DNA of 64,000 bases from a virus (Duplodnaviria > Caudoviricetes), in the IMG/VR virus record IMGVR_UViG_3300031993_000004, positions 32,001 to 96,000 of that record, one strand, 5' to 3'. Positions 27,073 through 63,213 of this stretch are shown here, piece by piece. The translations under genes and the position numbers were made by a program. Within the stretch, counting starts at the first letter, position 1. Each line of letters opens with the position of its first letter. Below the pieces are notes generated by a model, which saw only the letters and a program-made list of their open reading frames with translations, did no database searches and was not told where the DNA came from.

Positions 27073-30000
27073 TTATACGCTGAATCTAGAAGGTCTCTGT
27101 TGCGGGGTCGATTCAGGCGTGCTGTAGAACTTGTTATACGTCTCGTTCTTAGTCTTTGCAGTCTGATCGTTCTCGATACGAGCGGCATCAGACTCCTCAG
27201 TCTTCTTCAGCAGTTCCTGATTCATACCCATGATCTGGTTGATATCATATTGCATTGCGGAAATCCACGCTTTGCAGGTCTTCACAACCGTAGTCAGAAT
27301 CTTAACACCCTTGTCATAGCGCTTCTGATCCGTGTAGTAGATAGAATCAGATTGTTGCGTCATTGCATCCATGCCAATCAGAACACTGTTGACATATTGC
27401 ATGAAGCGAGACCATCTGTCGCATCTGATACGGATTTCGTTCAGAGTGTTATTGCTCTTTCCAGCTTGGTTTGTCGTGTCTGAATAACCGAACAACGCCT
27501 GTGATACACGTTGTTCAGTATCAGAGTCTTGCGGCACAACGAATGCAGACTTGACGAGATGAGCACCTGCCAGAAGTTCTGCACCACGCTCCATATTTCC
27601 GCGAATATCCAGCTTCGGATCTCTCGGAAGAGACGTGACATCTGCAGGAATATTGTCGTTGTTCAGTTTGATGTGCAGGTATTGTGCACAAGCCTCGACG
27701 GTATCATACGCAAGTGCGAGTAACGTATCGAGATGTTCATCAACATAGGAAGACTCCGGGAAGTTCAGATTGATGAAATAGAAGAAATACTTCTGCTCGA
27801 AGATTCCCTGCATGCCGTACTGCTGAATGAAACGCTTGATTGACCGAGAATGATTTCTGATTCTGTTACAGAATTCGACAAACTTTCGAATGAGTGTCAT
27901 TAGTGTTTTGATGACAAATCCGATTGCGGAACGGAGCAGCTGAATGGGTCCACGTCTGTTTGCTTTTGACAACGGATGCTTCTCTGATTTCGCCGCCGTA
28001 GAATCATACACGGCTTCCTGCATCAAACAGCTCTCGACAAATACATCAACGGCTTTGTCAACGTCTTCTGGTGATGAGTTGCCGGATTCCAGAATGATTT
28101 CTGTACTCTGATACATTGCGTCAAACATCATAAGTGCAGATTCCAGCGTCTGGACGTCTTCCTTGAGAGAAGCAATCTCTTCACCATCATCACTGATGGA
28201 AATGGAACCGCGGATATGGCACTTATCGATTGCAGTTTGCATAGCGGTCTCTTCGTCCATACCCATTTCAAGGAGTTCCTGATATTCGGATTTGACATCC
28301 GGATCCTTCGGTTCGTACTTTTCACCGGTGAGTTCGCACTTTGCATACAGAAGTTGCTCCATATGGAAACGTTCTTCATTTGCAATGTCTGCATACAGCC
28401 GGCGGAGAACATCGACGTTGGTTTCCTTAGCTCCGTCCATGTATTCGTTCATTGCATCGGCTTCGGAAGCCATCAGCTTCATCAGAATGGTGACTTCTTT
28501 CTGATCGTAATCGTTCTGCATGTCGGATGTATCCTTGCCGAATTGACCGAGGTCAACATTGTCGGCATCGAGATTCTCATCCGGTTGTTCGACAGCAGCT
28601 TTATCTGCAGCGGACATCCGATCCTTCAGATAACCTGGAATCTCTTCCAACTCAGGCGGGGTCTTTTCAGTGTCCCATCTGCTCGGCATCGAAGTTGATG
28701 GAGTTTCATTATCATCCCCGGCATCGTCATCTTTTGGCTCGTTGTCCTCAGACTCATCATCCCACTCAACATCGTCGAGCGGTGTCTCTTCGACGGAGAT
28801 GGATTCTTCTGTTTCGTCACCGTTCTCTTCGTCATCGAGGTCCAGATCACCGATTGTGATATCTTCCATATCTTCGGTTTCGGACAGGTTCTCTGCTTTC
28901 TTGGACTCGGTAATCATCAGATCTTCTGTCTGATCCATTCGATATCCCTCCTTGGTTAACATTGTTTTCTTGGCCTCACCATCATAGACCATTTTGCATT
29001 TGGTCATAATCCATTTGCAGAAGTCATCTGCTGGTGTACCATAATCGATTTTGGCATCCGTGTAATCCCACACTCCGTAATTGAGATCCTGGTTGTCATA
29101 CTCTGCAGAAACTTCTGCGACGTATTTGAAGATCTCTTCCAGAGAATCAAAAGTCTTTTGACGCTCGTAACCCCATTCATCAACAACACGTTTGAATGCT
29201 TGTTCGAGATAAATGAATTTACCATTTAATGGAACGACACATATTGTATGGGTGTTTATAATGGTTTTTCCGTCAGTTTTGGTAAAGTTCATGAAGTATT
29301 TTTTGTATGGTACCCCGAATGCTTCGAGATATCCAGCTTCATATTCAACCATATCCCAACAGTTACCGCCACCGGCTTCATCAACTTCTTGACTTGAATG
29401 GAATACCCAATGCTTCTGATAATCCGCTTCGGATACATTACCTGTTTGCAACCTGCCATCTTTGATCAAACCGTACTTGAACTTCTTCATGTCGATGCAG
29501 AGATCAGAGATAACACGTTCTGGTGAATAATCAAACTTTGTACCCTTCTCAAGTACTTTCGGTTTGACAACCCAATGCCATTTATATGTGAAATAATTAC
29601 GGTCATCTTTTTGACCTTTAGCCGTTGGAACGACAGCTTTTCGTTTCACATTGGATACTTGGTCAACTTTAATTACACCGTACAGTTTCAGCCGCACGGG
29701 TTCCATGATCCATACTTCGCGTGTAACATTTGCATCATAGACGAGTTTCTCGTTAACGAGTTCTTTTGTCGTTTTATGCTTGTATTCCTTCCATGGTTTT
29801 TCAGGAATATAAACATACATCTTGTCGAATTGGTCTGGATTCTGTCTCGGAAGATTCACAGTGATGCCATTCAACGCACCTTCGATAGACGTCGAGAAAC
29901 AAACGCGTGGAGTTGTGTTATCTTCAAATCCGGTTTCTTCGGGATTATATGGATCCAAATAGTCTGGAACACGCGGTTTCCATACTTGACCATCGTTATG

Positions 30001-32904
30001 CTTCTCATGCGACACATGAAATACCATCTTATCAGAGAATGGATTCACACCGTTCTTGATATCCTGGATAGCTCCCTCTTGAACCGGTTTTGATTTATCA
30101 AATCGCATGACCAATCCACCATGATCATTTTCCATGTCAACAATGAAACCGAGAGACTTATACAGTTTCTGTGCACGTTTGTTAGACTTCATTACCTGGA
30201 GCAGGATTTTGTCATGAGTCTTGATGTCCTTCTTGATGATATCCGAACCAATTCCAAGATTCCGATATTCCGGTTTGATGTAAATATGTGCGAGATACCA
30301 CCAATCACGTTTTCCTTCACGAAGTCCATAGTAGTTGGTTTCATATGCCTGATAAACACCGACGTCTTTCCCATCAACTACAATGATTTTGGTGTGACCG
30401 ATACTATCCTTAACATCCTGCTTAATATACCGCTGAACTTTTGGATCGTCTTTGTTTTCACCGACAGTCTCCAATTCAGACTGATATACCAAATCCAAAT
30501 CGGATTCTTTTGCTTTTCTCATCACATATTTTGAGGGTGTGGCATATTCATCCATGAAGGATTCTTTCACAACTTTCGGCATGGGGTTTGCATTGATTGT
30601 AACAATATCGGATTTAAGATAAGTTTTTGAAAAGTTCTTTTCGTAGAATATTCGTTCCATTGTTTCGAGATACATATCCCACAACATCTGATATGATATA
30701 GCTGGTATACCATTGGACTTTATCTCGTCCTCAGGTATGATATAGCCAATATAAACATACAATGGACGTCCGACTTTGTCCTCCATATACTGTTTGGCAT
30801 TGGGATGTCTTCCATCCGGATCATATGTCTCAGGTTGATAACCAACCTTATTTGCAAGATCAGCCAGGAATATGTATAACAGCGCTGTATAGAATCCATT
30901 TGCATATGTCACATTAACATGCATTTCTCTATCATAATACTTATCAAAGCATCTGATATTCTTGCCGATCAGTGTCTTATATGCCATTTCGCTATTGATA
31001 ATAGCTGTTGGTATCAATGCACCTCGAGAATGGAAATCGTTATAAAACGTTCGTCCATAGAAATACGGATACACTTGGATAGTATTTGAGCCAGACTGGT
31101 TATTTGCAGTGAGGGCGTTTTCCAAAGCGTGAATAATGTTTTTGTCACCGTTTTGGGAGTCTTCGATATCCTTCATCAAAGACATATATTCCGTGAGTAG
31201 GTTCTTTAGTGCGGTGACCGTCTTTTCTGGCAAATTTTCTCTACCAAGGATTGAATTAATTTCATTCGTTTTTGTTTTGATATCATTCAAAACTTGCTTT
31301 GGATTTTCGATGATCTGTTCATTATTACTTCTGATGTCATCGAGTTCATATTGGAGTTCACGTACATTGATTTCATCCGCATCATCGGAATTAATTTGAT
31401 CAATAACGCGACCAGCAATATTATTCAACCCATCAACATCAGTTTTCGTTTTCGCCGGGGAATCCCAACCGAAGAACGCTTTGATTTTATCAATTAGCCA
31501 TCTGACAGCACCACGGCACCATTCGATTATTCTTGCGATCAAGCTTCTCCGTTGAATCACTTCGGCTTCAAAAACCAACATTGATGACAACGCTTGACCA
31601 TAGTCGATGTAGGATTCACACCATTCTTTTACAGCCGTTGGATTATACTTGTCAACAAGTTCGTTTGCGAAGTCAGCAACGACATGAGACGCTTGCATCA
31701 GTGCAATACCTTTGCGTTTGTGTAGTATATCCGGGATTCCCTTGTAAACCGGAGTAACTTCGACGTTGGGTCCGACGATGTTTACTTCAATCGCAACGTC
31801 CGGCTTCATCCGAGATTTAATAGTAAACTTCGGAATCAGCGAACCGCCAATGAATTCAAAGTCATTCCCCAACAGATTCATCAGTTGGTTTTTGACATTT
31901 AACAGTGACGCCGTACATGCCGCTTCTTGAACAGGAAGATCTCCCATATTCATCGCCAATTGATAATCTTCATCACTCAGCAGGCCGTGCTCTTTCATAT
32001 ATGGGATATCCAGTTTCGGATCCCATGGGAGTACTTTTGACATATCATTGACATCAGCCAACAGTGTTGAATTGAATGTCCGATTGTCCAGCCGTACCAT
32101 ATATGAATTCATCATATTTGCATTGCGGAAATATGAATGAGAAGAATCAAGTGTTCCGAGCTCTTGGAAGATTCCAGCTTGTGGATCCATCAGGTACGCA
32201 TAATCCTGGATATTCACAACCAGAAATTCATGACCACCTTCAGAATCCTTCCAATTCACATGAACATACCATCTGGAATCAACCGCACCACGTACAGTAT
32301 CAATCAGATTTCTCTGTGATGTAAACTTTTGCCGAACCGGATTCTTGACGACTGTTTCACCTATGATCTCCAAAGCGGGATCGCGCGGTGAATAGATTGG
32401 ACGCGGAAGTACATGCATTCCGCGGCATTGTGCTTCAGCGCACCATACACAAAGTTGGCAGTTCTGATTGCCTGTTGGTGGTTTGGAATCTGCCTCCACC
32501 TTTGTTTTGATTTGGTTGACAATGGTTCTGGCGCGATCAATCGTCAATGCCTCGACTTCTTTCATACCATGCAGACGCGCGAACAGCTCGTCTTTTCCTT
32601 CGAGATACGGCGCCATCAGATGTGGCGCAACATTACCTCGACTGGTTCCGTCTGACATTGGTGGTACCTGTTCAGCAATCTTCTTGACTGCATCCATACC
32701 AGATGTATCAACACCTTCTTCGTTCGCACGTCGAAGGATCTTGTTTGCAAGTGTTTTCTTTTCAGATGTTGTGATATCACCATGGTTGATCAGTCGTGCT
32801 GCAGATTCGATATGCTCTGGATTATCCAACGGATATTTACGTTTTCCGGGAACACCAAACTCATTTTTTGGAATATTTTGGCGTTCTTTTGATGAGATTG
32901 ACAT
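27073..32904 (-). CDS. giant polyvalent multi-enzyme protein, probably virion-associated: DUF6582-like, papain-like (Tox-PL) peptidase, GNAT, ART-like, transglutaminase-like, ferritin-like and head-protein domains
   Basis: RBS before ATG 32904; FGVPGKRKYPL; NQNCQLC..GGHEF..MDPQ; HIYIKPEYRNLGIGS..SNKRAQKLYKSLGF; FHVS..PRVCFSTSI..REVW; GNCWD..THT..YLE; EADAMNEY..EERFH. Confidence 0.8.
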   Translation of the reverse strand: MSISSKERQNIPKNEFGVPGKRKYPLDNPEHIESAARLINHGDITTSEKKTLANKILRRANEEGVDTSGMDAVKKIAEQVPPMSDGTSRGNVAPHLMAPYLEGKDELFARLHGMKEVEALTIDRARTIVNQIKTKVEADSKPPTGNQNCQLCVWCAEAQCRGMHVLPRPIYSPRDPALEIIGETVVKNPVRQKFTSQRNLIDTVRGAVDSRWYVHVNWKDSEGGHEFLVVNIQDYAYLMDPQAGIFQELGTLDSSHSYFRNANMMNSYMVRLDNRTFNSTLLADVNDMSKVLPWDPKLDIPYMKEHGLLSDEDYQLAMNMGDLPVQEAACTASLLNVKNQLMNLLGNDFEFIGGSLIPKFTIKSRMKPDVAIEVNIVGPNVEVTPVYKGIPDILHKRKGIALMQASHVVADFANELVDKYNPTAVKEWCESYIDYGQALSSMLVFEAEVIQRRSLIARIIEWCRGAVRWLIDKIKAFFGWDSPAKTKTDVDGLNNIAGRVIDQINSDDADEINVRELQYELDDIRSNNEQIIENPKQVLNDIKTKTNEINSILGRENLPEKTVTALKNLLTEYMSLMKDIEDSQNGDKNIIHALENALTANNQSGSNTIQVYPYFYGRTFYNDFHSRGALIPTAIINSEMAYKTLIGKNIRCFDKYYDREMHVNVTYANGFYTALLYIFLADLANKVGYQPETYDPDGRHPNAKQYMEDKVGRPLYVYIGYIIPEDEIKSNGIPAISYQMLWDMYLETMERIFYEKNFSKTYLKSDIVTINANPMPKVVKESFMDEYATPSKYVMRKAKESDLDLVYQSELETVGENKDDPKVQRYIKQDVKDSIGHTKIIVVDGKDVGVYQAYETNYYGLREGKRDWWYLAHIYIKPEYRNLGIGSDIIKKDIKTHDKILLQVMKSNKRAQKLYKSLGFIVDMENDHGGLVMRFDKSKPVQEGAIQDIKNGVNPFSDKMVFHVSHEKHNDGQVWKPRVPDYLDPYNPEETGFEDNTTPRVCFSTSIEGALNGITVNLPRQNPDQFDKMYVYIPEKPWKEYKHKTTKELVNEKLVYDANVTREVWIMEPVRLKLYGVIKVDQVSNVKRKAVVPTAKGQKDDRNYFTYKWHWVVKPKVLEKGTKFDYSPERVISDLCIDMKKFKYGLIKDGRLQTGNVSEADYQKHWVFHSSQEVDEAGGGNCWDMVEYEAGYLEAFGVPYKKYFMNFTKTDGKTIINTHTICVVPLNGKFIYLEQAFKRVVDEWGYERQKTFDSLEEIFKYVAEVSAEYDNQDLNYGVWDYTDAKIDYGTPADDFCKWIMTKCKMVYDGEAKKTMLTKEGYRMDQTEDLMITESKKAENLSETEDMEDITIGDLDLDDEENGDETEESISVEETPLDDVEWDDESEDNEPKDDDAGDDNETPSTSMPSRWDTEKTPPELEEIPGYLKDRMSAADKAAVEQPDENLDADNVDLGQFGKDTSDMQNDYDQKEVTILMKLMASEADAMNEYMDGAKETNVDVLRRLYADIANEERFHMEQLLYAKCELTGEKYEPKDPDVKSEYQELLEMGMDEETAMQTAIDKCHIRGSISISDDGEEIASLKEDVQTLESALMMFDAMYQSTEIILESGNSSPEDVDKAVDVFVESCLMQEAVYDSTAAKSEKHPLSKANRRGPIQLLRSAIGFVIKTLMTLIRKFVEFCNRIRNHSRSIKRFIQQYGMQGIFEQKYFFYFINLNFPESSYVDEHLDTLLALAYDTVEACAQYLHIKLNNDNIPADVTSLPRDPKLDIRGNMERGAELLAGAHLVKSAFVVPQDSDTEQRVSQALFGYSDTTNQAGKSNNTLNEIRIRCDRWSRFMQYVNSVLIGMDAMTQQSDSIYYTDQKRYDKGVKILTTVVKTCKAWISAMQYDINQIMGMNQELLKKTEESDAARIENDQTAKTKNETYNKFYSTPESTPQQRPSRFSV

Positions 32905-46616: not shown

Positions 46617-46654
46617 TACAAATACTTGCAGTGCCCGCCATATGGCGGGCATTG

Positions 46655-48690
46655 TAATGTAATGGTACGGTATGGAAGAGTTCGGTAGGGTCTTGCTCCG
46701 TTCTGTGTGGGTGGAGTGCGCTGTAGTTCTGTTCCGTGTAGGTGAAGTGCACTGTAGTCCTGTTCGGTGCAGGTAAAGTCTGGGATGGTTCTGGTAAGTT
46801 TAGCAATGTGATTGCACGGTTAGGCAAACTGCCGCATTGTCTAGCTACGTATTGTGACTGTGGTGCTGCGGTTTCGCGATGTAACCTGTGGTATCGTATG
46901 GGCATGGTATCGTTGAATTCAGTAATGATTCGTTCGGCGATGTGATTGTGATGCGGTGTACCATACCGTCGCGTGGAGGTAGTGTGGGGCAGAGTGGTGA
47001 CGTGCATCGTTATGATATGTGAAGCAACTGTAAAGAGTCGTGGAGTATCGCTATGTCAAGGCAAGGCACAGTATTCTCTCGTCATGTCTCGTGGCGTCAA
47101 TGTAGTGTAGTATAGTGTGCCGTGGCGTAAAGGTACAGCGGGGCTTTGTCAAGTAATGTAACGGTAAAGTGGCGCGGTGTAAGGTCACATCGCGTTTTGT
47201 CACGTTGCGTTTCGGTAAAGTAATGTATTGTCTTGTATCGTTGGGGTGAGGTCCGGTAAGGTGCGTTATCGTAAGGCGGTGTGGCGTACAGTAAAGGTAC
47301 TGTAATGTCGGGCGCTGTCACGTTACGGCAAAGTGAATTCTGGTATGGTGACGTAACGTAAATGTTTCGTAATGTTTCATTTAGCAACGTAATGGCATAG
47401 TGAAGTCTGGTATGGTGCCGTGATGTAATGGCAAAGTGCTGTGAAGTTATGTATGGTAAAGGTATGGTTGCGTCCGGTAAGGCGCAGTAGTATATTGTGA
47501 CGTGAATGTAAGGTAAAGTGGGGTATGCTTATGTGAAGCAGCGACCCAGTAATTCAGTCACGGTATGGCGACGTAACGTAGAGTATCGTTACGTGGGGTT
47601 ATGGCAAAGTGTTGGTTAGCTTCGTACAGCTCAGTCATGCAACAGTGAGGTTTGGCAGGGTTGGGTAAAGTCATGTAAAGGCAGGGTGAGGTGTGGCAGA
47701 ATAACGTGTGGCAATGTCACGTAACGGTGAAGAATGGTGCAGTGTTGAGTTGTTCCGTTAAGTGATGGCACGGTGTTGATTAGCTTCGTACAGCTCAGTC
47801 GCGCAACAGTGAAGTGAAGTAGCGCACGGTGGAGCTATGTAAAGGCAAGGCGGGGTGTGGCGTTGAACTGTTGAGCTCTGTCACTGTGAGGTGAGGCGTG
47901 GTAGCGAGCGTATGGCAATGCCTCGTAAGGTATTGGTATGGTATGGCTGTGTCTCGCAGAGTGATGGTTAAGTGATGTTGTGTTGAGTGTTGTATCGTTT
48001 GGCCATGGCATGGTGTCGTATCGTATGGTCACGGTCGGTTCTGTAAAGGCAAAGTACGTTGTCGTCTGGTGGAGTCTCGTGGTGTCAATGTAGTGTAGTG
48101 CTCAGCGATGTCAGGTTACGGTAACGGTACGGTGCTGTTTGGTAGAGCTTAGTTTAGTAAAGGTACAGCATGGTTATGTACTGATTGATTGAGTAATGCG
48201 CTGTAATGGCATGGTTCGGTCCGGTCCTCTCCTGTTATGTAATGGCATGGTGGAATGTTGTGACGTAATGCCACGTAAGGTCTTGCAACGCAATTGTACA
48301 GCATTGTCTGGTCTAGTGCGGCCAAGTGCTGTCTGGTCTCGGTATGGTATATTCCAGTCACGATCTTTGCGGTTAGGTGTTGTGTTGTAAAGGTGCGGCA
48401 GGGTTGCGCGAGGTGCCGTTGCGTAATGCTTCGTGAGGTAATTGTACAACATTGTCTAGTTTTGGTATGGCGTAGAGACGTTCCGTAACGGTGATGTGAT
48501 GTGTAGTTCCGTCGGGTATAGTAAAGGTATGGTTCTGCGAGGTGTTCTGAAGTATTGTGAGGTCAGGTCTAGGTAAGGTAATACATCGTAAGATGCAGAA
48601 CTGTCTGGGGATGGTACAGCACATCAAAGTTATGTACTGCAAAGTTGTGTCTCGGCGCAGCTCAGTGACGATCCGCTTTGTGAAGTAACC
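46655..48690 (+). repeat. NGY-NN pentamer array 1, putative guide-RNA array
   Basis: 5-nt periodic GT/GC with regular +1 phase shifts; G/T-skewed and non-coding. Confidence 0.85.
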
Positions 48691-48705
48691 TGAAGTTCAG
48701 ATTTG

Positions 48706-48743
48706 AAAAAAGATGGGGCGCATCACGCCCCATCTTTTTTCTT
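48706..48743 (+). terminator. intrinsic terminator closing array 1
   Basis: AAAAAAGATGGGGCG-CATCA-CGCCCCATCTTTTTT. Confidence 0.85.
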
Positions 48744-48744
48744 G

Positions 48745-48766
48745 AATTTCATATATATATCATTAT
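48745..48766 (+). promoter_or_regulatory. putative early promoter motif
   Basis: AATTTCATATATATATCATTAT. Confidence 0.6.
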
Positions 48767-51263: not shown

Positions 51264-51305
51264 TATAATTGCCCATATGTACAACATGTATGTATGGGCA
51301 AAGAT

Positions 51306-51376
51306 GGGTTCGTAGTTTAATGGCAAAACAACGGTCTCCAAAACCGTTGATTGGGGTTCGATTCCCTGCGGACCTG
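51306..51376 (+). tRNA. tRNA-Trp(CCA)
   Basis: Cloverleaf; ACGGT-CTCCAAA-ACCGT. Confidence 0.9.
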
Positions 51377-51474
51377 TCAAAATAAAAGGGAGTTAAGTCG
51401 TGGCGGTTTGAATCTGCTTTTAAGGTTCGGAGTGTACCGCACCACGCTAGCCCAAAGTCCATAAACACTCATCT

Positions 51475-51558
51475 GCTGGTGTGGCGAAATCGGCAGACGC
51501 AGTAGACTCAAAATCTACCGGTGGCGATACCATGTGGGTTCGAGTCCCACCACCAGCA
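51475..51558 (+). tRNA. tRNA-Leu(CAA)
   Basis: GTAGA-CTCAAAA-TCTAC; long variable arm. Confidence 0.92.
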
Positions 51559-51559
51559 T

Positions 51560-51646
51560 TCATCACAGGAGATGAGAAGTTCCAGCACTTCTTCGTGGTC
51601 CCTCAATGAAACTGCGTAGTTTAAGGGTAAAACCCCCTGTGTTGAT
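51560..51646 (+). ncRNA. circularly permuted tRNA-like RNA (Y RNA/YrlA-like candidate)
   Basis: T-like arm, loop-closed acceptor stem and D arm, enclosed by a CACAGG/CCTGTG stem. Confidence 0.45.
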
Positions 51647-51706
51647 TCAAGGCGACATATCATGGTCTGGTGGTGGCAAAAGATGACACAGAAAAGGAGA
51701 AACGGT

Positions 51707-52066
51707 ATGGAACTGAAAAGACAAATGCCCGAGCAGCATGATGTTGTGACATTCTATATTAACAGCGATGAGTTTAACACCATGATGCTCAATCATACTG
51801 CAAACGAGTTTGTTGCGCAACGACTCAATGGCATTGCGATCAAAGAGAATGATCTGATTGTCATATATGTCGATCGCGGACAAACGCACAATCTGTCGGC
51901 AGAGCTGATGAAACAATTGATGAAATCCCTTGTCGATCAGCTTGGCTGCAAAGTTATATGCATGCCAGCTGTCGCACATCTCTCGGTTGAATCCAAAAAG
52001 GATTTCATTAATATGCTGAGAGAAACTATCATATATCTTGAAAAAGGCGATGACGAAAATAATTGA
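51707..52066 (+). CDS. hypothetical protein
   Basis: AAAGGAG RBS. Confidence 0.65.
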   Translation: MELKRQMPEQHDVVTFYINSDEFNTMMLNHTANEFVAQRLNGIAIKENDLIVIYVDRGQTHNLSAELMKQLMKSLVDQLGCKVICMPAVAHLSVESKKDFINMLRETIIYLEKGDDENN

Positions 52067-52204
52067 GAGCGATTGGCGATAGTGCGTGAATCGCGGTGGT
52101 ATGTTGTGTGGAACTAATTTCCAGGGGAGTTTCGATTCCAGACGAGGATCCTGGAGAAATAGAATGTCGAGGCCGTAAGATCTAGAAGCACATCATATTG
52201 TCAT

Positions 52205-52347
52205 CATTACCTCGTATGCAAGTGGTCAAAAGCAGTCTACCTTTGGTAGGTAGAGAAGACTCTCCACCCGGGATATCCGGCCGGGTATCGGGTTAAAACT
52301 CGCAATCGCGAGGGGGAGTACGCGGGTTCGAATCCCGCCGGGTAATG
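52205..52347 (+). ncRNA. tRNA-like RNA with a branched, greatly expanded variable region
   Basis: CATTACC/GGTAATG closing stem; D-like arm; GCGGG-TTCGAAT-CCCGC T arm. Confidence 0.55.
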
Positions 52348-52367
52348 TTGCTCAATTCTATATAGGC

Positions 52368-52440
52368 CGGGGTGTAGCGCAGTTGGTAGCGCGCCTGCTT
52401 TGGGAGCAGGATGCCGCAGGTTCGAATCCTGTCACTCCGA
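52368..52440 (+). tRNA. tRNA-Pro(TGG)
   Basis: CCTGC-TTTGGGA-GCAGG. Confidence 0.93.
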
Positions 52441-52448
52441 TTTCCCAT

Positions 52449-52532
52449 GCTACTGTGGCGAAATTGGCAGACGCAAGAGACTTAAAATCTCTCGGTGGAT
52501 ACATCTTGTGGGTTCAAGTCCCATCGGTAGCA
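52449..52532 (+). tRNA. tRNA-Leu(TAA)
   Basis: AGAGA-CTTAAAA-TCTCT. Confidence 0.9.
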
Positions 52533-52587
52533 TTCAAAGGCACTTACAGCAATTCTCAAATAATGATGAATGAACGATGTGCCTTGA

Positions 52588-52665
52588 GGTGAAGTAGCTC
52601 AGGTGGTAGAGCGTCGGGAGTGTAACTCCTGCAGGGATGTTAGGTTCGAGCCCTAACCTTCACCA
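52588..52665 (+). tRNA. atypical tRNA, probably Tyr(GTA)
   Basis: GGTGAAG/CTTCACC acceptor; CGGGA-GTGTAAC-TCCTG; short variable arm. Confidence 0.6.
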
Positions 52666-52782
52666 TCCACGTCCTGTCGGAACCTGTGTACGCAGGCCAA
52701 TTCCACAAATAAAAGGATATACGGCGCCAAATGACCGTGACGGTCATGTATATCCCTCTCGGCAGGCTCCGTGGTGCCATAT

Positions 52783-52860
52783 GCCAGTGTAGCTCAGTTG
52801 GTCGTTAAGAGCAGCTCCTTCATACGGAGAAGGTCGGTGGTTCGAATCCACTCATTGGCA
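52783..52860 (+). tRNA. tRNA with CAT anticodon (Met or Ile2)
   Basis: CTCC-TTCATAC-GGAG; enlarged D loop. Confidence 0.8.
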
Positions 52861-52884
52861 TTCATTTTTTCATCAATTGAGTAG

Positions 52885-53450
52885 TAAACAAAAGCCCATT
52901 CAAAGGATGGGTAAGCTTTACCAAGGAAATCGTTGCAGTGCACAAGGATAAGAGTATTGCGATATGCTGCATTCCTAGTATCGGACGAGTACGAAACCTT
53001 GGTTGTGTCATTGGCGCTATTAAGAAGCGTCTTCCCGAAAAGAGCCTCAACGTAAGATCCAGTAGAAGAATCCATAGTCTGGTGCATATCTCGGTCTGTG
53101 GATTGCGATGTAACTGGTGGGAAAAGGATGATACGGGAATCTCCTGAGTAGTGGCGAGCGAAAGGGATCCACAAGAGAGCATGGGGACACGATCCGAACA
53201 CGTGCTTGTGAGTGGTCAAAATCGCCCTGGAAACGGGCATGGGCAGTTATGAAAGATGATGAAAAGATGGCGACGGTTGTGTGCAGTCCAGACCATTTGG
53301 TTGGCGTGGGATACTAAGGAATCACCAGACTGCATATGAACCTAGATTGTTGTGTAAGCGGGAACGCACTGGCCACCTAGCGAGCCAGGTATACCGGAGG
53401 ATTCCGGCGAACATAATTGAAGTGAGACGCTCTATAATCTACACAACAAT
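52885..53450 (+). ncRNA. large structured ncRNA candidate
   Basis: About 570 nt between tRNAs with many helices, no credible ORF and a 23S rRNA-like motif. Confidence 0.5.
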
Positions 53451-53451
53451 T

Positions 53452-53527
53452 GGGGCTGGGCAGGAACACACGTGGCCAGGGTGGCGTTACGACGTTGCCT
53501 TACGGGTTCGAATCCCGTCACAGCTCT
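53452..53527 (+). ncRNA. anticodon-less tRNA-like element
   Basis: GGGGCTG/CAGCTCT acceptor with G3:U70; canonical T arm; UACG-capped stem. Confidence 0.45.
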
Positions 53528-53530
53528 TCT

Positions 53531-53603
53531 GACTCGGTAGCCAAGAGGCAAGGCAAGGGAGTGCAAATCCTAGATGCGTCGTGTTCGAATCCGACCCGAG
53601 TCT
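53531..53603 (+). tRNA. tRNA-Cys(GCA), slightly atypical
   Basis: GACTCGG/CCGAGTC acceptor; loop GTGCAAA; U73. Confidence 0.75.
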
Positions 53604-53610
53604 TTTTTTT

Positions 53611-53686
53611 GGGGTATTAGCTCAGACTGGATCAGAGCACCTCCCTTCTAAGGAGGGTGTCGTGGGTTCGAATCCTACATACCCCA
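53611..53686 (+). tRNA. tRNA-Arg(TCT)
   Basis: CCTCC-CTTCTAA-GGAGG. Confidence 0.9.
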
Positions 53687-53698
53687 TTCAACATTCCG

Positions 53699-53724
53699 AA
53701 ATTTCATATATATATTATTATTAT
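53699..53724 (+). promoter_or_regulatory. putative early promoter motif upstream of the ncRNA candidate
   Basis: AAATTTCATATATATATTATTATTAT. Confidence 0.6.
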
Positions 53725-55122: not shown

Positions 55123-55142
55123 ATTTCATATATATATTATTT
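55123..55142 (+). promoter_or_regulatory. putative early promoter motif
   Basis: ATTTCATATATATATTATTT. Confidence 0.55.
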
Positions 55143-58216: not shown

Positions 58217-58683
58217 GACTATGTGCTGGTTACGACGGGAGAACCTGTGTCCGGAATATGACCATGTTCTTGATGGCAGTTTTCTCGACGAAAATCTCCG
58301 AATACGCCATGAAGAAACTTGGTGACAAACACGACAATTTCTCGTGCCACCTCTTCGAAGAGGGTGCCGGCATTATGATCAGTGCGTCCCATGATGCGAA
58401 TGATGATCCAACGTTTTATCCCATGTATCGTGTGACTGTTAACGACGACCGTAATACTGTATACGTCGTATACGGTGATGACATCGTCACATTCCGTATT
58501 AAGACGACGGCGATTGGAACTGGAATTTCATGCTCAGATTATTCCAACATCAAAGATCCGATCGCATTGGAACATATCACGGAATTGCGTCAATTGATCC
58601 AGGATGCGATGAAGACGATCGTCGGCCCGATGGCAGCACTCGCCATAATGCCTGATGAAGGGATTGATCATGATGCATCGTAA
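58213..58683 (+). CDS. hypothetical protein
   Basis: GGAGG RBS; ATGA overlap. Confidence 0.65.
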   Translation: MRLCAGYDGRTCVRNMTMFLMAVFSTKISEYAMKKLGDKHDNFSCHLFEEGAGIMISASHDANDDPTFYPMYRVTVNDDRNTVYVVYGDDIVTFRIKTTAIGTGISCSDYSNIKDPIALEHITELRQLIQDAMKTIVGPMAALAIMPDEGIDHDAS

Positions 58684-59305
58684 GCCAATAAAGTACGAAC
58701 CCGTCAAGCCGTCTGTGTTTGACGGGTTCAAACTCGATCTGATTGTGATTGTAATCCTTATTATAATCGCAGGGGTCTGCACAATTATTACGACCCCAAG
58801 AACTAACAAAACCATGTCATCTGCTGATACAGCAGAAATCACGACCACGTGCACGACTTCAACTACCGTTATGACCACCACTACAACGGTTACGACTGTA
58901 ACAACTACGACAACCGAAATGACAACAACCACCACAACCACTTATGATCCAAAGGAACGCCTAATCGATTATGGCAACTTTACTGCCACTTATTATCATG
59001 GCAGATATACAAATCCATGTCCTGGTGGATCCGGACGGATGCTTCTGGACTGTACACCAAAAGACGATGAAATCAAAGGCAGTGTTGCTTGTCGACGGAT
59101 TCAAGAAGATTACGGATATAACGTAAACGGAAGAACCCGTGTTTATCTCGAAATGGACAGTCATCCTGAAATGGACGGCTGGTATTTCGTCGATGACGCG
59201 TGCGAGAAGCTCACAATTGTAGACTTTTATTTCATCGAATATGAGGATTGTCCATGGTGTGGTGATATACCACCATCTGTACACTTGTGGATGGAAGTCT
59301 CATAA
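58670..59305 (+). CDS. membrane-anchored protein with Thr-rich stalk and 3D/DPBB-like cell-wall domain
   Basis: TM helix; poly-Thr linker; FTATYY..SVAC..YFVDDAC..IVDFY. Confidence 0.65.
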   Translation: MMHRKPIKYEPVKPSVFDGFKLDLIVIVILIIIAGVCTIITTPRTNKTMSSADTAEITTTCTTSTTVMTTTTTVTTVTTTTTEMTTTTTTTYDPKERLIDYGNFTATYYHGRYTNPCPGGSGRMLLDCTPKDDEIKGSVACRRIQEDYGYNVNGRTRVYLEMDSHPEMDGWYFVDDACEKLTIVDFYFIEYEDCPWCGDIPPSVHLWMEVS

Positions 59306-59306
59306 C

Positions 59307-60092
59307 TGTCTAGTTTGGGTAAAGTGCTGCGAGGCGCAGTATGGTCGTGGTGTTGCACGGTCCAGTATGACATTGTTTTGTCGAGCAACTGTATAGCGGT
59401 GTATTGTCAGGTTTTGGTACTGTGGCGTTAGGTTCAGCACGGTCTCGTCTGGTACTGGTTTAGTATTGCCGAGCAGCGCAACGTATAATGCAGTGACGGT
59501 GTAGTCATGTCTGATGTGGTCGAGTCAAGTCAAGGTTAAGCTGCGTTCGGTGCAGGTGCCGTTCAGTTGTGGTGTAGTCGAGGTTTGGTAAAGTACTGTA
59601 CAGCTAAGTATCGTCAATGTGTTGTCAAGAACGGTTCCGTGATGTTAAGGTTAGGATACGTGCCGTATGATACCGTGAAGGTATGGTGCAATGAGCTCAA
59701 GTGTTGTTATGACACGTGCATTTCTGTAAAGGTTAAGCTCTGTGACGCATTGCATCTCGTGATTGTAAAGGAAAGTGTCATGCAGAACAGTGCAGCGTAG
59801 TTTCTGTGCTGTTATATCTTGTCCAGCGTGGTTAAGGTCGGGTACGGTCCCGCATTGTTCTGTTTGGTAATGTAATAGCGTAGTACAGTTAGGTTGTGTT
59901 ACGTAGAGCAACTGCATAGTGATCTGATGTAGGGTCGTGTCACGGTCGGTGATGTAATGTACAGCATAGGTATAGTTCCGTATAGTATCGTTCAGCCATG
60001 TTCAGTTGCGGTAGAGTAAAGTTGAGCGACGTGTGGTAGGGTAACGGTGGAGTGTTGTGTTGTCACGTGAAGTCAAGTAATAGTAATGGTAA
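59307..60092 (+). repeat. NGY-NN pentamer array 2, upstream of the RAMP gene
   Basis: For example ggtaa agtgc tgcga ggcgc agtat; 5-nt period with phase shifts. Confidence 0.85.
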
Positions 60093-60140
60093 ACACACTC
60101 ATCACAATTCTTTCGTAATATGAGATTTGAAGAAATTCTG

Positions 60141-60163
60141 AAATCTCATATATATATCATTAT
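60141..60163 (+). promoter_or_regulatory. putative early promoter of the RAMP gene
   Basis: AAATCTCATATATATATCATTAT. Confidence 0.6.
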
Positions 60164-60268
60164 GATGATCCGGAGACAAATTCTCACCCCCACCCGGATC
60201 AAAAACAAACAAATTCACAAATTCAATGGGTTTAAAGTGGGGGACAACCCGGAAAAGGAGCGCATATT

Positions 60269-61033
60269 ATGGCAAACAAGAAAGACGCTGCAGAAGCAGC
60301 AGCAACAACCACCACGGTCGAGAAGAAGGCACCTGCGAAAAAGAAGGCAAAATCTGATGGGCCTCAAAAGTATTACATGACGACAGTTGAGGTAACTTTC
60401 ACGAACGAGCTTCTGGCCACCAACAGCGCGGATCCGGATATCTATTCCGCGTATCTCGCGTCACTCGCAAGTGACGAAGACCGCAAGGCGGAACTCGAGC
60501 GTCTCGGCCTCGCAGAGGTTGATGAGAAGGGTATGACGGTTTTCCTCAGAAACAAGGAAAACCCGATGATCCCTCAGCTCAAGGCATATACATGGCTCGG
60601 GTTCCTCAAGGCCCGCAGCCGTGCACAGGCAAAGATCGACGGAAATCCGATCGTTGGAATGACCGCATATATCAAAGAAATCGATGACCGCATTGCGGTA
60701 TCTCCGAAATTCATTGATCTGGAGCTCCCGGAAGGAGCAGCTGTTGACACTCTGCAGCGTCCGCTTCGTGCGCAAACCATGCAGGGTGACCGTGTCGCTC
60801 TCGCAAAGTCTGAGACTGTTCCGGCTGGCACAAAGTGCCGCTTTACCTTCAGAACCGAAACTCTTGAAGGTATGAAGCTTGTTGAAGCCTGCCTCAGATA
60901 CGGCGCTATCCATGGTACAGGCCAGTGGAGGAATGCCGGTTACGGCACCTTCACATATAAGATCATCGATAGATGGTCGGAGGTCGAAGAGCCGATCGTT
61001 CTGTCTGAAGAGGACTTCCCTGTCCGCGCATAA
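60269..61033 (+). CDS. solo Cas7-group RAMP-fold RNA-binding protein (Vipr-like)
   Basis: N-terminal strand VEVTFTNELLAT; LGFLK helix; RPLRAQT..ALAKSETVPAGT; C-terminal Gly-rich loop GTGQWRNAGYGTF typical of RAMPs. Confidence 0.8.
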   Translation: MANKKDAAEAAATTTTVEKKAPAKKKAKSDGPQKYYMTTVEVTFTNELLATNSADPDIYSAYLASLASDEDRKAELERLGLAEVDEKGMTVFLRNKENPMIPQLKAYTWLGFLKARSRAQAKIDGNPIVGMTAYIKEIDDRIAVSPKFIDLELPEGAAVDTLQRPLRAQTMQGDRVALAKSETVPAGTKCRFTFRTETLEGMKLVEACLRYGAIHGTGQWRNAGYGTFTYKIIDRWSEVEEPIVLSEEDFPVRA

Positions 61034-61048
61034 TACTCACAAGATCGA

Positions 61049-61082
61049 AATTGGCGGTGTCTATATGGCACCGCCAATTTTC
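61049..61082 (+). terminator. hairpin between the RAMP gene and array 3 (terminator or processing site)
   Basis: AAATTGGCGGTGTC-TATAT-GGCACCGCCAATTT. Confidence 0.6.
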
Positions 61083-61104
61083 TATGCTACCACAATGGCT
61101 TAAC

Positions 61105-61415
61105 AGTAACGGCACAGTTTCGCGGGGTCAAGTGCAGTCCAGTCGTGGTATGGCATTGTTTACTAATGTCTCGTGGAGTTTTGGCATGGTGTGGTTTCGC
61201 TGTGTGGCGTGCTGTCAAGGCAGGGTATTGTACTATGACGCATTGTCGCGTATTGGTTACGTAATGTGAGACATGGTTATGTGTCGTAAAGGCATTGTGG
61301 AGTACGGTAATGTTGTGCTTAGTCATGTTATGGTATAGCAGCGGTTGGTGAGGTGTTGCTGTGTGGCGTTTCGGTATTGTGATGTTCCGTGTCGTGGAGC
61401 AGAGTAATTGTGACA
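61105..61415 (+). repeat. NGY-NN pentamer array 3: eight units of 36 or 41 nt
   Basis: Units start GGY at 61111, 61147, 61183, 61219, 61255, 61291, 61332 and 61373. Confidence 0.88.
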
Positions 61416-61677: not shown

Positions 61678-61751
61678 GGGCCTCTAGCTCAGACGGTTAG
61701 AGCAGTGGACTCATAATCCATTGGTCCAGGGTTCGAGTCCCTGGGGGCCCA
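61678..61751 (+). tRNA. tRNA with CAT anticodon (likely Ile2)
   Basis: GGGCCTC acceptor; GTGGA-CTCATAA-TCCAT. Confidence 0.88.
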
Positions 61752-61794
61752 TCATCTATATAATTAGCGAAGGGGAGTACAACATAATATTTGA

Positions 61795-61880
61795 GGAGAG
61801 GTGTCCGAGTGGCTTAAGGAGCCAGTCTTGAAAACTGGTGATACGGAAACGTACCGTGGGTTCAAATCCCACTCTCTCCG
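61795..61880 (+). tRNA. tRNA-Ser(TGA)
   Basis: CCAGT-CTTGAAA-ACTGG; long variable arm; G73. Confidence 0.93.
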
Positions 61881-62376
61881 TCAAACTCTAAGACGTCTGA
61901 TTTCGCAGACGCGTGCTTCCTTTTCGGCTTTAAACCGCCTGGCATGCCGATTCATGACCAGGTATAAAAAACAGTCCGTGTGTATCGAAACCGGCCAATG
62001 ATCTTAGGCCGGATCGCGCCCGCCGCCTGCAGATCGCGGCATTGAGCTCTTATCTCCGTGAGAGTTGGCGCTACTATGTGAGAGACACGGACTACCGCTG
62101 GGGTTTACATAAATGCGGTTTACCCAGCACCAGCTTATTGCCAGAGGCAACAGCTGCCGGCTTTGCTGTTGTCTTTGCTCAGATAAGGGCCTAGTATTCA
62201 GGAATTTACAAAGCGGGTTATGCTTATTGAGGTTTCAGAGAGCGCCGCAATGGATGCGCTTGAAGATGTCGTTCATCTCTAAATCCAATGTGTTCATGTT
62301 GCGGAAGCACAACAACAACCACAACGACCACAGATGCTCGGCTTCCCCGCTAAAGAATATGAAAAACGCTCAATTT

Positions 62377-62448
62377 GCACGTGTCGTACAGTGGGCAGTA
62401 TACCAGCCTTCCAAGCTGGGGATGAGGGTTCAATTCCCTTCACGTGCT
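62377..62448 (+). tRNA. tRNA-Gly(TCC)
   Basis: CCAGC-CTTCCAA-GCTGG; U73. Confidence 0.88.
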
Positions 62449-62722
62449 TCGACGATGATGGTTTGATTTCTGACATTTACGGGTTATGTATTAACCGGTC
62501 GATGTATTGACAGATACATATGGCAGAATGATACTATCACCGTCGCACTCCGTATAAACCGTAGGGGTAGAGGCACCCACCCCTGCGGTTTTGCTCTTTA
62601 CTGTAAATTCTTGCAGTTTGTCCATTCTGCAAGGATCTGCATGAAGATACCTCCAGACGCGCAGGAGTTCTCACGCTAGCTAAGAGGACTCCTGCACTGC
62701 GTCGCCTGAGAAAGGAGAAACT

Positions 62723-62989
62723 ATGAATGATGATCTCAAAAAATGCTTGACAAGCGTTGCAGCATTGATCGCAATATTCATTCTCTGCTCTGCGCTCGGA
62801 TCATGTTGCACAGAGCAGGATATACGTGATTACACGTATATCTATGTCGATGGACAACAATACATGACATCAGATATTGTTGACATAAGTTATATCCCTC
62901 TCCGCTACGGCAATGACGCCGTGACATTCAAGCTCAAAGACGGAACTGTTATACGCACACAATCTAATGATTATACTCTCAGCAATTAA
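62723..62989 (+). CDS. small membrane protein/lipoprotein, YDYIVIDG family
   Basis: GAAAGGAG RBS; TM helix plus YTYIYVDGQQYMTSDIVDI. Confidence 0.65.
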   Translation: MNDDLKKCLTSVAALIAIFILCSALGSCCTEQDIRDYTYIYVDGQQYMTSDIVDISYIPLRYGNDAVTFKLKDGTVIRTQSNDYTLSN

Positions 62990-63001
62990 GCGTTTCCATA
63001 T

Positions 63002-63073
63002 TGGAGTATGGCCAAGCGGCAAGGCATCAGACTTTGACTCTGACACGCGCTGGTTCGAATCCAGCTACTCCAA
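63002..63073 (+). tRNA. tRNA-Gln(TTG)
   Basis: TCAGA-CTTTGAC-TCTGA; U1-A72. Confidence 0.9.
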
Positions 63074-63213
63074 CTCAATATCTTTTATCTCGGCACCAAA
63101 TGATTTTTCAACACTCGTTTTGGTGCGCAGTCTTCACTTTCTATACTGATTTCATTTGATTTCAGTTGTCCACGGTTTCGACATCTTCCGTGGACATTCT
63201 TTTTTAAGAAATA

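Follow-up and report, generated by a model that had tools for sequence, protein, structure and literature searches.

We identified, in a stretch of 64,000 nucleotides of viral DNA (hereafter the window; positions 32,001 to 96,000 of the IMG/VR virus record IMGVR_UViG_3300031993_000004; Duplodnaviria, Caudoviricetes), a gene for a solitary RAMP protein, which we call vipr, placed between two arrays of pentamer repeats that run on its own strand. We consider it very likely that this gene and its arrays belong to VIPR, a recently described kind of phage-encoded RNA-guided system, and likely that they constitute, by the mechanism proposed below, a VIPR RNA-guided DNA-silencing system of a 277-kb jumbo phage of the rumen. 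The virus record of the phage is one contig of 277,583 bp with a terminal overlap of 247 bp, rated as 100% complete by CheckV, and the contigs closely related to it come from rumen metagenomes. Positions are those of the window, unless a genome position is indicated, and the coordinates of the features are collected in Table 1.

VIPR (Viral Interference Programmable Repeat) was presented in 2026 as a phage system composed of a minimal RAMP, Vipr, and of vrRNAs made of GGY/NN pentamers; according to the available text of these papers, each repeat is bound by one protomer, which sequesters the GGY, and the NN pairs with double-stranded DNA with a skip at every third base of the target; the outcome is the transcriptional silencing of rival phages and satellites, including a satellite recombinase (10.64898/2026.04.26.720920; 10.64898/2026.04.26.720927; 10.64898/2026.10.15.759431). 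These rules derive from the study of two type II systems only, which are close relatives, and the published survey comprises seven types and 667 loci. A type II vrRNA consists of a repeat tract followed by a conserved, structured 3' tail, and the alternative architectures are staggered, ribozyme-separated or single. Variants are on record: the Methods of one paper state that some types use YNNNG, NNNNG or NNNGG repeats, and its Fig. S18 describes staggered arrays with a one-base offset (10.64898/2026.04.26.720920), and the accessible text of another reports non-canonical motifs, WGT/NN and TGH/NN among them, in 21 clusters (10.64898/2026.10.21.760802). In the portions of these two texts that were available, variants of the YNNNG or WGT type are given neither a pairing rule nor targets, nor are they explained at the level of residues. 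The original prediction for this locus, made from the letters of the DNA, had pointed to a resemblance to VIPR and proposed a distinct code variant: the papers do exist and describe this architecture, and the variable first base of the repeat is real, but the motif was already in the literature, as YNNNG/NNNNG (10.64898/2026.04.26.720920) and as WGT/NN (10.64898/2026.10.21.760802).

The open reading frame (ORF) of vipr, which has no match in Pfam, codes for a protein in which we recognised a disordered Lys/Ala-rich N-terminal tail (residues 1–32), absent from shorter relatives, followed by an RRM core, a helical insert, a beta-hairpin thumb (residues 160–184) and a Gly-rich loop, the G-loop (residues 216–228); both the 254-residue ORF and its Gly-rich loop had been correctly noted in the original prediction. 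The AlphaFold2 model, obtained from 43 homologues, has a mean predicted local distance difference test score (pLDDT) of 80.2, and the top matches of this model in a Foldseek search of the PDB were only Cas7-family backbone subunits, type VII Cas7 (8yhe_E, E-value 2e-8) in the first place, followed by Csm3, Cmr4 and domains of Cas7-11. VIA-align gave Z scores of 12.7 to Csm3 (9g9a_D; root mean square deviation 3.9 over 165 residues), 12.0 to Cmr4 and 11.9 to a second Csm3 structure (6ae2_B), and the structural alignments to Csm3, Cmr4 and type VII Cas7 span residues 31–243. The model, Foldseek and VIA-align agree in pointing to the RAMP/Cas7 fold that had been anticipated; as modelled, Vipr would be a minimal RAMP, with one RRM, a thumb and a Gly-rich loop and no second RRM. 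No solved Vipr structure surfaced in the copy of the PDB that we searched.

The gene stands alone in its genome. A search with the vipr family profile recovered a single copy, no match to Cas1 (PF01867) was found in the complete 277,583-bp genome by a search that was positive in seven control genomes, and Tandem Repeats Finder detected no array like those of clustered regularly interspaced short palindromic repeats (CRISPR) in the window, in agreement with the absence of cas1 and of a CRISPR array stated at the outset. With one RAMP gene in the genome, no Cas1 and no CRISPR array in the window, the locus does not have the composition of a class 1 CRISPR effector.

The two flanks of vipr are poor in ORFs, with no convincing ORF on the plus strand of the upstream array, and carry instead a strong signal of period five. 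The lag-5 autocorrelation of G amounts to 0.40 in both the upstream flank (59307–60093; z = 11.2 against 2000 shuffles) and the downstream flank (61106–61414; z = 7.0 against shuffles), and to -0.05 within the vipr ORF. When the whole window was divided into tiles of 300 nucleotides, values above 0.25 were obtained only in these two flanks and between 46600 and 48700, and in the entire genome only three long period-5 arrays were observed, the two flanks of vipr and a distal array about 11.5 kb upstream of it, all of them on the same strand. A further stretch of 160 nucleotides, at positions 165181–165341 of the genome and outside the window, also passed the threshold of the lag-5 G filter.

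After phase-aware segmentation of the arrays, 92–93% of the units begin with G and 88–92% with G followed by a pyrimidine, T being preferred to C by about 4:1, while the remaining three positions are nearly uniform in base composition. The base that precedes the G of the unit is itself a G in only 14–17% of the units. The same-strand N-G-Y-N-N arrays of the original prediction are thus correctly described, both in their periodicity and in the composition of their units. We also noticed that the arrays do not keep one register: they are built of runs of mostly 5–11 pentamers, with exactly one extra base between successive runs. Within the flanking arrays, 23 of these junction bases are G, six are T and two are A; across 83 related loci, where the runs have 5–8 pentamers, G occupies 83% of the junctions. 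The context of the junction is conserved as well, since after the G-Y head the last unit of a run tends to A-A-N and the first unit of the next to A-N-N. Runs without a tail, joined by single bases, fit the staggered architecture as it is worded in the legend of Fig. S18 in the available text of 10.64898/2026.04.26.720920. In total, the three arrays hold about 76 guides in about 3.2 kb. The distal array, which contains several near-duplicate pairs of guides and in which many read-outs start with ATG, is bordered by a hairpin (46631–46652) and by a strong terminator (48705–48741), and it most likely feeds the same Vipr protein, since there is only one vipr gene in the genome.

The association of gene and array extends far beyond this phage. 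A word-indexed search returned 308 Vipr homologues, and a profile search among 1.84 billion cluster representatives (clusters at 50% identity) returned 2141 at E ≤ 0.001, mostly from gut and rumen phages. We retrieved 80 homologous loci from IMG/VR, whose proteins are 38–46% identical, and the gene is directly adjoined by a same-strand period-5 G array (upstream, downstream or on both sides) in 79 of the 80, so that the flanking arrays pointed out in the original prediction are a feature of the homologues too. All the arrays of these loci are devoid of a G before the G of the unit. The one locus without a period-5 array within 4 kb of the gene, L050 (a contig of 225 kb), may have its array further off, like the distal array described here. 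The content of the arrays has turned over even between close relatives: only one guide is common to the phage and to its 72%-identical jumbo-phage relative L081. A constant scaffold with free content, next to a RAMP gene, has the appearance of a guide-RNA array. Two further observations concern the extent of the arrays and the architecture of the protein in the family. In L055, a contig of 73 kb, pentamer arrays of about 3.5 kb (some 600 units) lie around vipr, within 8.6 kb, and two proteins with top profile scores, P0122 (458 residues) and P0123 (432 residues), occur naturally as tandem fusions in which both Vipr-like domains have a G-loop of their own.

The loss of the first G of the canonical motif seems to have a counterpart in the protein. 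In the structure of the Vipr of Escherichia phage SUSP1, His17 and Asp177 read the first G of the repeat (G1), Arg138 and Trp178 hold the second (G2) and Arg179 holds the pyrimidine (Y3); we confirmed on KT454805 that the 195-residue product of the SUSP1 gene (28474–29061) carries His17, Lys33, Arg138, Asp177, Trp178 and Arg179. Alignment with hhalign places Asp177, Trp178 and Arg179 of SUSP1 opposite Gln219, Trp220 and Arg221, and an alignment by eye places its thumb residues Arg138-Pro139 opposite the invariant Arg164-Pro165. Gln219, Trp220 and Arg221 are invariant in all 43 aligned relatives, an Asp at the position of Gln219 is present in none of about 267 family members, and no His was seen in the family alignment that could correspond to His17. 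This pattern suggests that the contacts to G2 and Y3 are kept and those to G1 replaced, which would account for arrays that retain G-Y and have lost the first G. As far as can be judged from the residues, the change from Asp to Gln would free a base; it does not show what the freed base then does.

In order to look for targets, the guides were read as three bases per unit, with no gap between units. The read-out of the guide at 60011–60045, which is the sole guide common to the phage and L081, was scanned against 185,579 species genomes and gave matches in Ruminococcus sp. YRD2003 and in Gallibacter. The YRD2003 site, on a contig of 220 kb, lies in a gene of the PHROG 19490 family beside a prophage replication module that comprises a helicase, a primase-helicase, a family A polymerase, a Gp2.5-like single-stranded DNA-binding protein (SSB) and an exonuclease. 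The variant of this guide in L081 matches the same site at 21/21 of its first 21 bases, and at 22/24 over its full eight units, and a guide of another relative, L082, matches 19/21 bases in the gene of the Gp2.5-like SSB, 4 kb away in the same module, for which we estimate a chance expectation of about 0.008 on the contig. Reversed and shuffled guides, used as controls on the whole YRD2003 contig, gave one and zero matches, respectively. The single base by which the versions of the shared guide in this phage and in L081 differ falls on a unit that also varies among the alleles of the prophage. Weaker matches on the YRD2003 contig (16–17/18 bases) are near chance level and were set aside. The guide at 61256–61290 has its best matches, 20/21 bases, in two genomes of the genus of YRD2003, within the gene of a large serine recombinase of 534 residues with Resolvase, Recombinase, zinc-ribbon and DUF4368 domains; the matched motif is conserved and belongs to the catalytic domain, and the site is present in 41 of 161 genomes of that genus. 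Taken together, it is fairly probable that the guides are directed at mobile elements.

The remaining guide searches returned nothing of this kind. A BLAST-type search with seven guides of the upstream array in the 161 genomes of the genus yielded only junction-spanning or AT-rich noise, a pattern search allowing up to two mismatches found no match for a duplicated guide of the distal array, and none of the distal-array guides had a match in the target DNA compared here. Stretches of related prophages from about 35 other genomes contained no further guide matches, with no convergence of several guides of this phage on one element. We also compared the guides with the DNA of 83 related loci and of this genome under 24 decoding rules, which combined different paired positions with skips of 0–3, and the only matches were incompletely masked copies of the arrays, so that these local data cannot choose a decoding rule.

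The published rule and a contiguous rule both assign three target bases to each unit and differ only in the pairing of the fifth base of the guide unit, and full-length searches cannot decide between them, because such searches demanded a match of that base. For this reason, third bases were ignored when the 161 genomes of the genus were searched with the recombinase guide, and the recombinase site described above accounts for 42 of the 45 sites obtained. The alleles of the recombinase vary at wobble positions, and at each of its six informative third positions the guide carries a base that keeps the target codon synonymous, the G of a Met codon among them; we calculate for this a chance of p ~0.006 with the base composition of the arrays. 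A second indication, independent of any database, comes from the starts of the guides of this phage: units beginning with AT read ATG in 14 of 21 first units versus 17 of 62 internal ones (Fisher p = 0.002), an excess that is due mostly to the distal array and is not significant in the relatives. The match in the prophage gene agrees at 7/7 third bases, although this agreement is biased, as the match was found with the full-length pattern. A search with the guide at 61184 that ignored third bases produced one chance match, the same count as its reversed control.

Several points weigh against a reading of the third base. The test on the recombinase depends on one guide, none of its alleles matches all six third bases (the best allele matches five), and the synonymous bases could be a relic of the origin of the guide rather than a sign of pairing. 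The in-frame stop codons across the clade are mixed in this respect, TAA and TAG being depleted and TGA enriched. Under the ordinary VIPR rule, the two bases that follow the pyrimidine would pair, while the fifth base, no longer recognised by the protein, would be left unread and the target base opposite to it skipped. Every match found here fits this rule too, as the target period is three nucleotides in both cases; the mismatches in the recombinase all fall at third bases, reminiscent of vrRNA4 of SUSP1, which skips the wobble base of a recombinase, and the available text of 10.64898/2026.10.21.760802 treats WGT/NN as a fixed trinucleotide followed by NN. Set against this are the synonymous third bases returned by the search that ignored them, the enrichment of ATG over ATH in the first units, the agreement in the prophage gene, with its bias, and the clade-wide replacement of the residue that reads that base in SUSP1, which frees the base and shows no more. 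We regard the ordinary rule as possible but rather unlikely. The evidence that the third base carries target information is thin, with pairing as its simplest reason, and the arguments for and against seem to us about equal; as for the base being actually read, the balance is even or tips very slightly in favour. It is an even question, too, whether in the clade with Gln219 the target base left out by canonical VIPR is paired by the freed one, giving one full triplet per protomer along an unbroken target, and we attach the same weight to a triplet code in which a guide would often spell, in sense orientation, one codon per protein subunit. The non-contiguous targeting code of the original prediction holds for the guide side, which is gapped, whereas the target side seems to be continuous, with three target bases for five guide bases.

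We propose the following mechanism. The pentamer arrays would be transcribed by the phage and the transcripts cut at or near the one-base junctions, which are natural candidate processing sites in view of their conservation, to yield guides without tails of about 30–50 nucleotides (5–11 pentamers). One Vipr protomer would occupy each pentamer of the resulting ribonucleoprotein, with the G and the pyrimidine sequestered by Arg164 of the thumb and by Trp220 and Arg221 of the G-loop, and the three remaining bases would face double-stranded DNA, so that five guide bases read three target bases. With the G1 pocket lost by the change from Asp to Gln, the freed base would probably pair with the target base that canonical VIPR skips, and the protomers would then read contiguous triplets. 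In the Ruminococcus host, the filament would pair with the template strand of genes that belong to integrated rivals, such as the gene beside the prophage replication module and that of the large serine recombinase, and block their transcription; silencing of transcription by such a filament was shown experimentally for the SUSP1 system.

Signals for the expression of the locus can be tentatively assigned. The 18-nucleotide motif in front of vipr recurs 11 times in the genome with up to three mismatches (five sites with at most one), with an exact copy at 48749, just past the terminator of the distal array, and near-copies at 53704 and 55126, on the plus strand. In two cases it immediately follows a terminator and precedes a gene, and it is probably one promoter class of the phage. 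A promoter of its own had been ascribed to vipr in the original prediction: the recurrent AT-rich motif is indeed present, and its role as promoter is only presumed. The upstream array, which begins directly after the stop codon of the ORF at 58655–59305, may be the tail of the transcript of a row of genes on the same strand, because the row that ends there starts behind the copy of the motif at 55126.

Several observations weigh against the proposed system or limit its support. The downstream array starts 25 nucleotides past the terminator-like hairpin that follows vipr, and would need read-through or an unrecognised promoter, because that hairpin precedes it. Neither structured 3' tails nor Rfam ribozymes were found in the arrays, and no accessory vap gene, which is typical of vipr operons though not universal, adjoins vipr, nor is any neighbour conserved in the window or in the two closest jumbo-phage relatives. 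The hhalign comparison of the family alignment with the SUSP1 Vipr aligns only a 27-residue region at the G-loop (E 0.002, probability 13%). Regarding the targets, about 0.5 chance matches are expected in the scan of species genomes; the Gallibacter match is probably one of chance, and the YRD2003 match, taken alone, proves little because of this expectation. The recombinase may be a chromosomal or domesticated gene rather than a gene of a mobile element, since its site recurs in 41 of the 161 genomes and housekeeping genes occupy the inspected sides in both contexts examined: it stands between genes for peptidyl-tRNA hydrolase and Mfd on one side and for rhamnogalacturonan lyase on the other in one genome (G514:C6, ~88.9–90.5 kb; L139/L140), and adjoins cell-wall genes in another (G541:C28, 1825–3429; L142). 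Exact scans of IMG/VR with the read-outs of the guides at 59681, 61184 and 61256, and with an amino-acid-degenerate version of 59681, gave no matches, and neither did an exact scan of the Joint Genome Institute (JGI) metagenomes with the guide at 61256. The expectation that decoded units would match targets better than control guides was borne out for mobile-element or prophage DNA, but a plausible target is available for only two of about 27 flanking guides, and neither match is perfect.

Three other explanations of the locus were considered. The arrays could give rise to antisense or RNA-targeting guides acting on mRNA, in the manner of the backbones of type III or type VII CRISPR systems, and the closest solved folds are indeed RNA-targeting Cas7 proteins (Csm3, Cmr4, type VII Cas7 and Cas7-11). 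All three credible matches, however, have the same sense as the coding strand, so that pairing of the guide would be possible with the template strand of the DNA and not with the mRNA; moreover, the characterised members of the family bind double-stranded DNA and a nuclease partner was not found at the locus, which makes RNA targeting very unlikely.

That the guides regulate genes of the phage itself, for instance in an early-gene shut-off, and do not act on rivals, would agree with the ATG that, like the start of a gene, opens many distal-array read-outs, and with the appearance of the upstream array in the 3' part of a phage operon. Yet the matches of guides from the three arrays to the 277-kb genome do not rise above chance, with 15/18 bases at best, and the published systems are without self-targeting too; we find self-regulation extremely improbable. 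We give similarly little credence to the arrays being decaying, non-functional or a feature of the DNA, next to a RAMP gene that works without them. About 12% of the units in the upstream array have degenerate heads without G-Y, as decay would produce, but the same-strand linkage of gene and array persists in 79 of 80 loci whose proteins are only 38–46% identical, the junction architecture is conserved, the scaffold is kept while its content turns over between close relatives, and the arrays are present only on the strand of the gene.

Table 1. Features of the vipr locus and of related loci. Positions are those of the window, except for the SSB genes, which are given by locus.
Feature	Position	Strand	Description
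vipr gene	60269..61033	+	254-aa single-RRM RAMP (Cas7-like)
Upstream vrRNA-like array	59297..60093	+	~155 G-Y-N-N-N units in 28 runs (19 of at least 5 units), single-base junctions
Downstream vrRNA-like array	61106..61414	+	8 guides of 7–8 units, single-base junctions, G-Y heads 92%
Distal array	46644..48699	+	~2.05 kb, ~400 units, 49 runs of at least 5 units
Seven-unit guide	60011..60045	+	20/21 bases in a small prophage gene of Ruminococcus sp. YRD2003 (rumen isolate)
Seven-unit guide	61256..61290	+	large serine recombinase motif Tyr-Asn-Glu-Met-Tyr-Val-Lys, in codon frame and sense orientation
Hairpin	60118..60150	+	past the end of the upstream array, ahead of the promoter-like motif; z = -2.2, weak
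AT-rich promoter-like motif, 18 nt	60146..60163	+	in front of vipr; putative promoter
Terminator-like hairpin with short U run	61047..61081	+	14 nt past the vipr stop codon; -26.8 kcal/mol, z = -6.0
SSB genes near the vipr-array unit in relatives	L003:5817-6221, L030:5219-5767, L007:4834-5598	same strand as the unit	PF00436

Concerning the neighbouring genes, the commonest neighbour of vipr in the smaller relatives is a same-strand SSB gene (PF00436), present in 41 of 83 loci and without a homologue in the jumbo phage; it could be an accessory partner or could merely reflect a neighbourhood of replication modules. The ORF just upstream of the array (58655–59305, plus strand) codes for a protein of 216 residues in which a hydrophobic segment, a long linker rich in Thr and a C-terminal domain containing Cys can be distinguished. 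This was the one neighbour scanned against Pfam, with no match above threshold; it is not conserved beside vipr in the relatives and is not a candidate for vap. Clusters of tRNA genes are located at 51305–53687 and 61678–63074 on the plus strand, with 11 genes according to ARAGORN and 12 according to Rfam, the second cluster beginning about 260 nucleotides past the downstream array.

Neither the system as a kind nor its variant motif is new, the variant being only named in the literature available to us. What is added here is the junction architecture, an account of the lost first G by the change from Asp to Gln, the first candidate targets in Ruminococcus and suggestive evidence for a reading by triplets. 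The locus represents a very large uncharacterised branch (2141 cluster representatives) that is unlike type II in its motif and in its guide architecture, and that probably differs from it also in how many bases it reads. Should the third base be read, the specificity per protomer would rise from 4 to 6 bits and the target would need no gap, with consequences both for the search for natural targets and for the reprogramming of such systems; a triplet code would then be a second and denser VIPR code, with three of five bases informative and a simple structural switch that could be engineered. On the proposed reading, the phage would direct a library of about 76 guides at elements resident in Ruminococcus, with some 3.2 kb of its genome spent on guides aimed at prophage and recombinase genes in its likely host, and the use of VIPR as a weapon between viruses would extend to the rumen and to giant phages.

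In comparison with the type II systems (SUSP1 and a Pseudomonas fulva prophage), the locus shares a phage-encoded single-RRM RAMP with a thumb and a G-loop, the absence of cas genes and of a CRISPR array, same-strand pentamer arrays on both sides of the gene, the conserved Trp-Arg of the G-loop and Arg-Pro of the thumb and, in the mechanism proposed here, the binding of one pentamer per protomer, the reading of three target bases per unit and the targeting of rival integrated elements, including a recombinase in codon frame. It differs from them in several respects. The motif is G-Y and not G-G-Y, with three variable bases per unit; the Asp that reads G1 is a Gln and His17 has no counterpart; there is no structured 3' tail or pseudoknot and no promoter for each guide, the runs being joined by one base; no vap lies beside vipr; the protein has a Lys/Ala-rich N-terminal tail of 32 residues and a similarity in sequence limited to the G-loop; and the carrier is a jumbo phage of 277 kb with a rumen Firmicute as likely host. 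SUSP1 has four vrRNAs, in contrast with the ~76 guides in three arrays found here. The non-canonical VIPR variants, as far as the available texts describe them, have in common with it the pentamer period, a degenerate first G, an adjoining gene for a Vipr-like fold, guides without tails and a one-base offset between guides; unlike the present locus, they are known there only from listed motifs and architecture.

The Cas7 backbones Csm3, Cmr4, type VII Cas7 and Csf2 are a further term of comparison, with the RRM core, the thumb hairpin and the Gly-rich loop in common (Z 9.5–12.7). They, too, polymerise on a guide with a fixed step, and their thumb flips bases out at regular intervals, which is what we suppose for Vipr. 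The step would be of five nucleotides here rather than six, with two guide bases per unit kept out of the duplex instead of one, and there is neither a repeat-spacer array, nor a partner of the Cas5, Cas6, Cas8, Cas10 or Cas11 type, nor genes for adaptation. While the specificity of the Cas7 backbones is held in a continuous spacer, in this phage it appears to be written between fixed dinucleotides.

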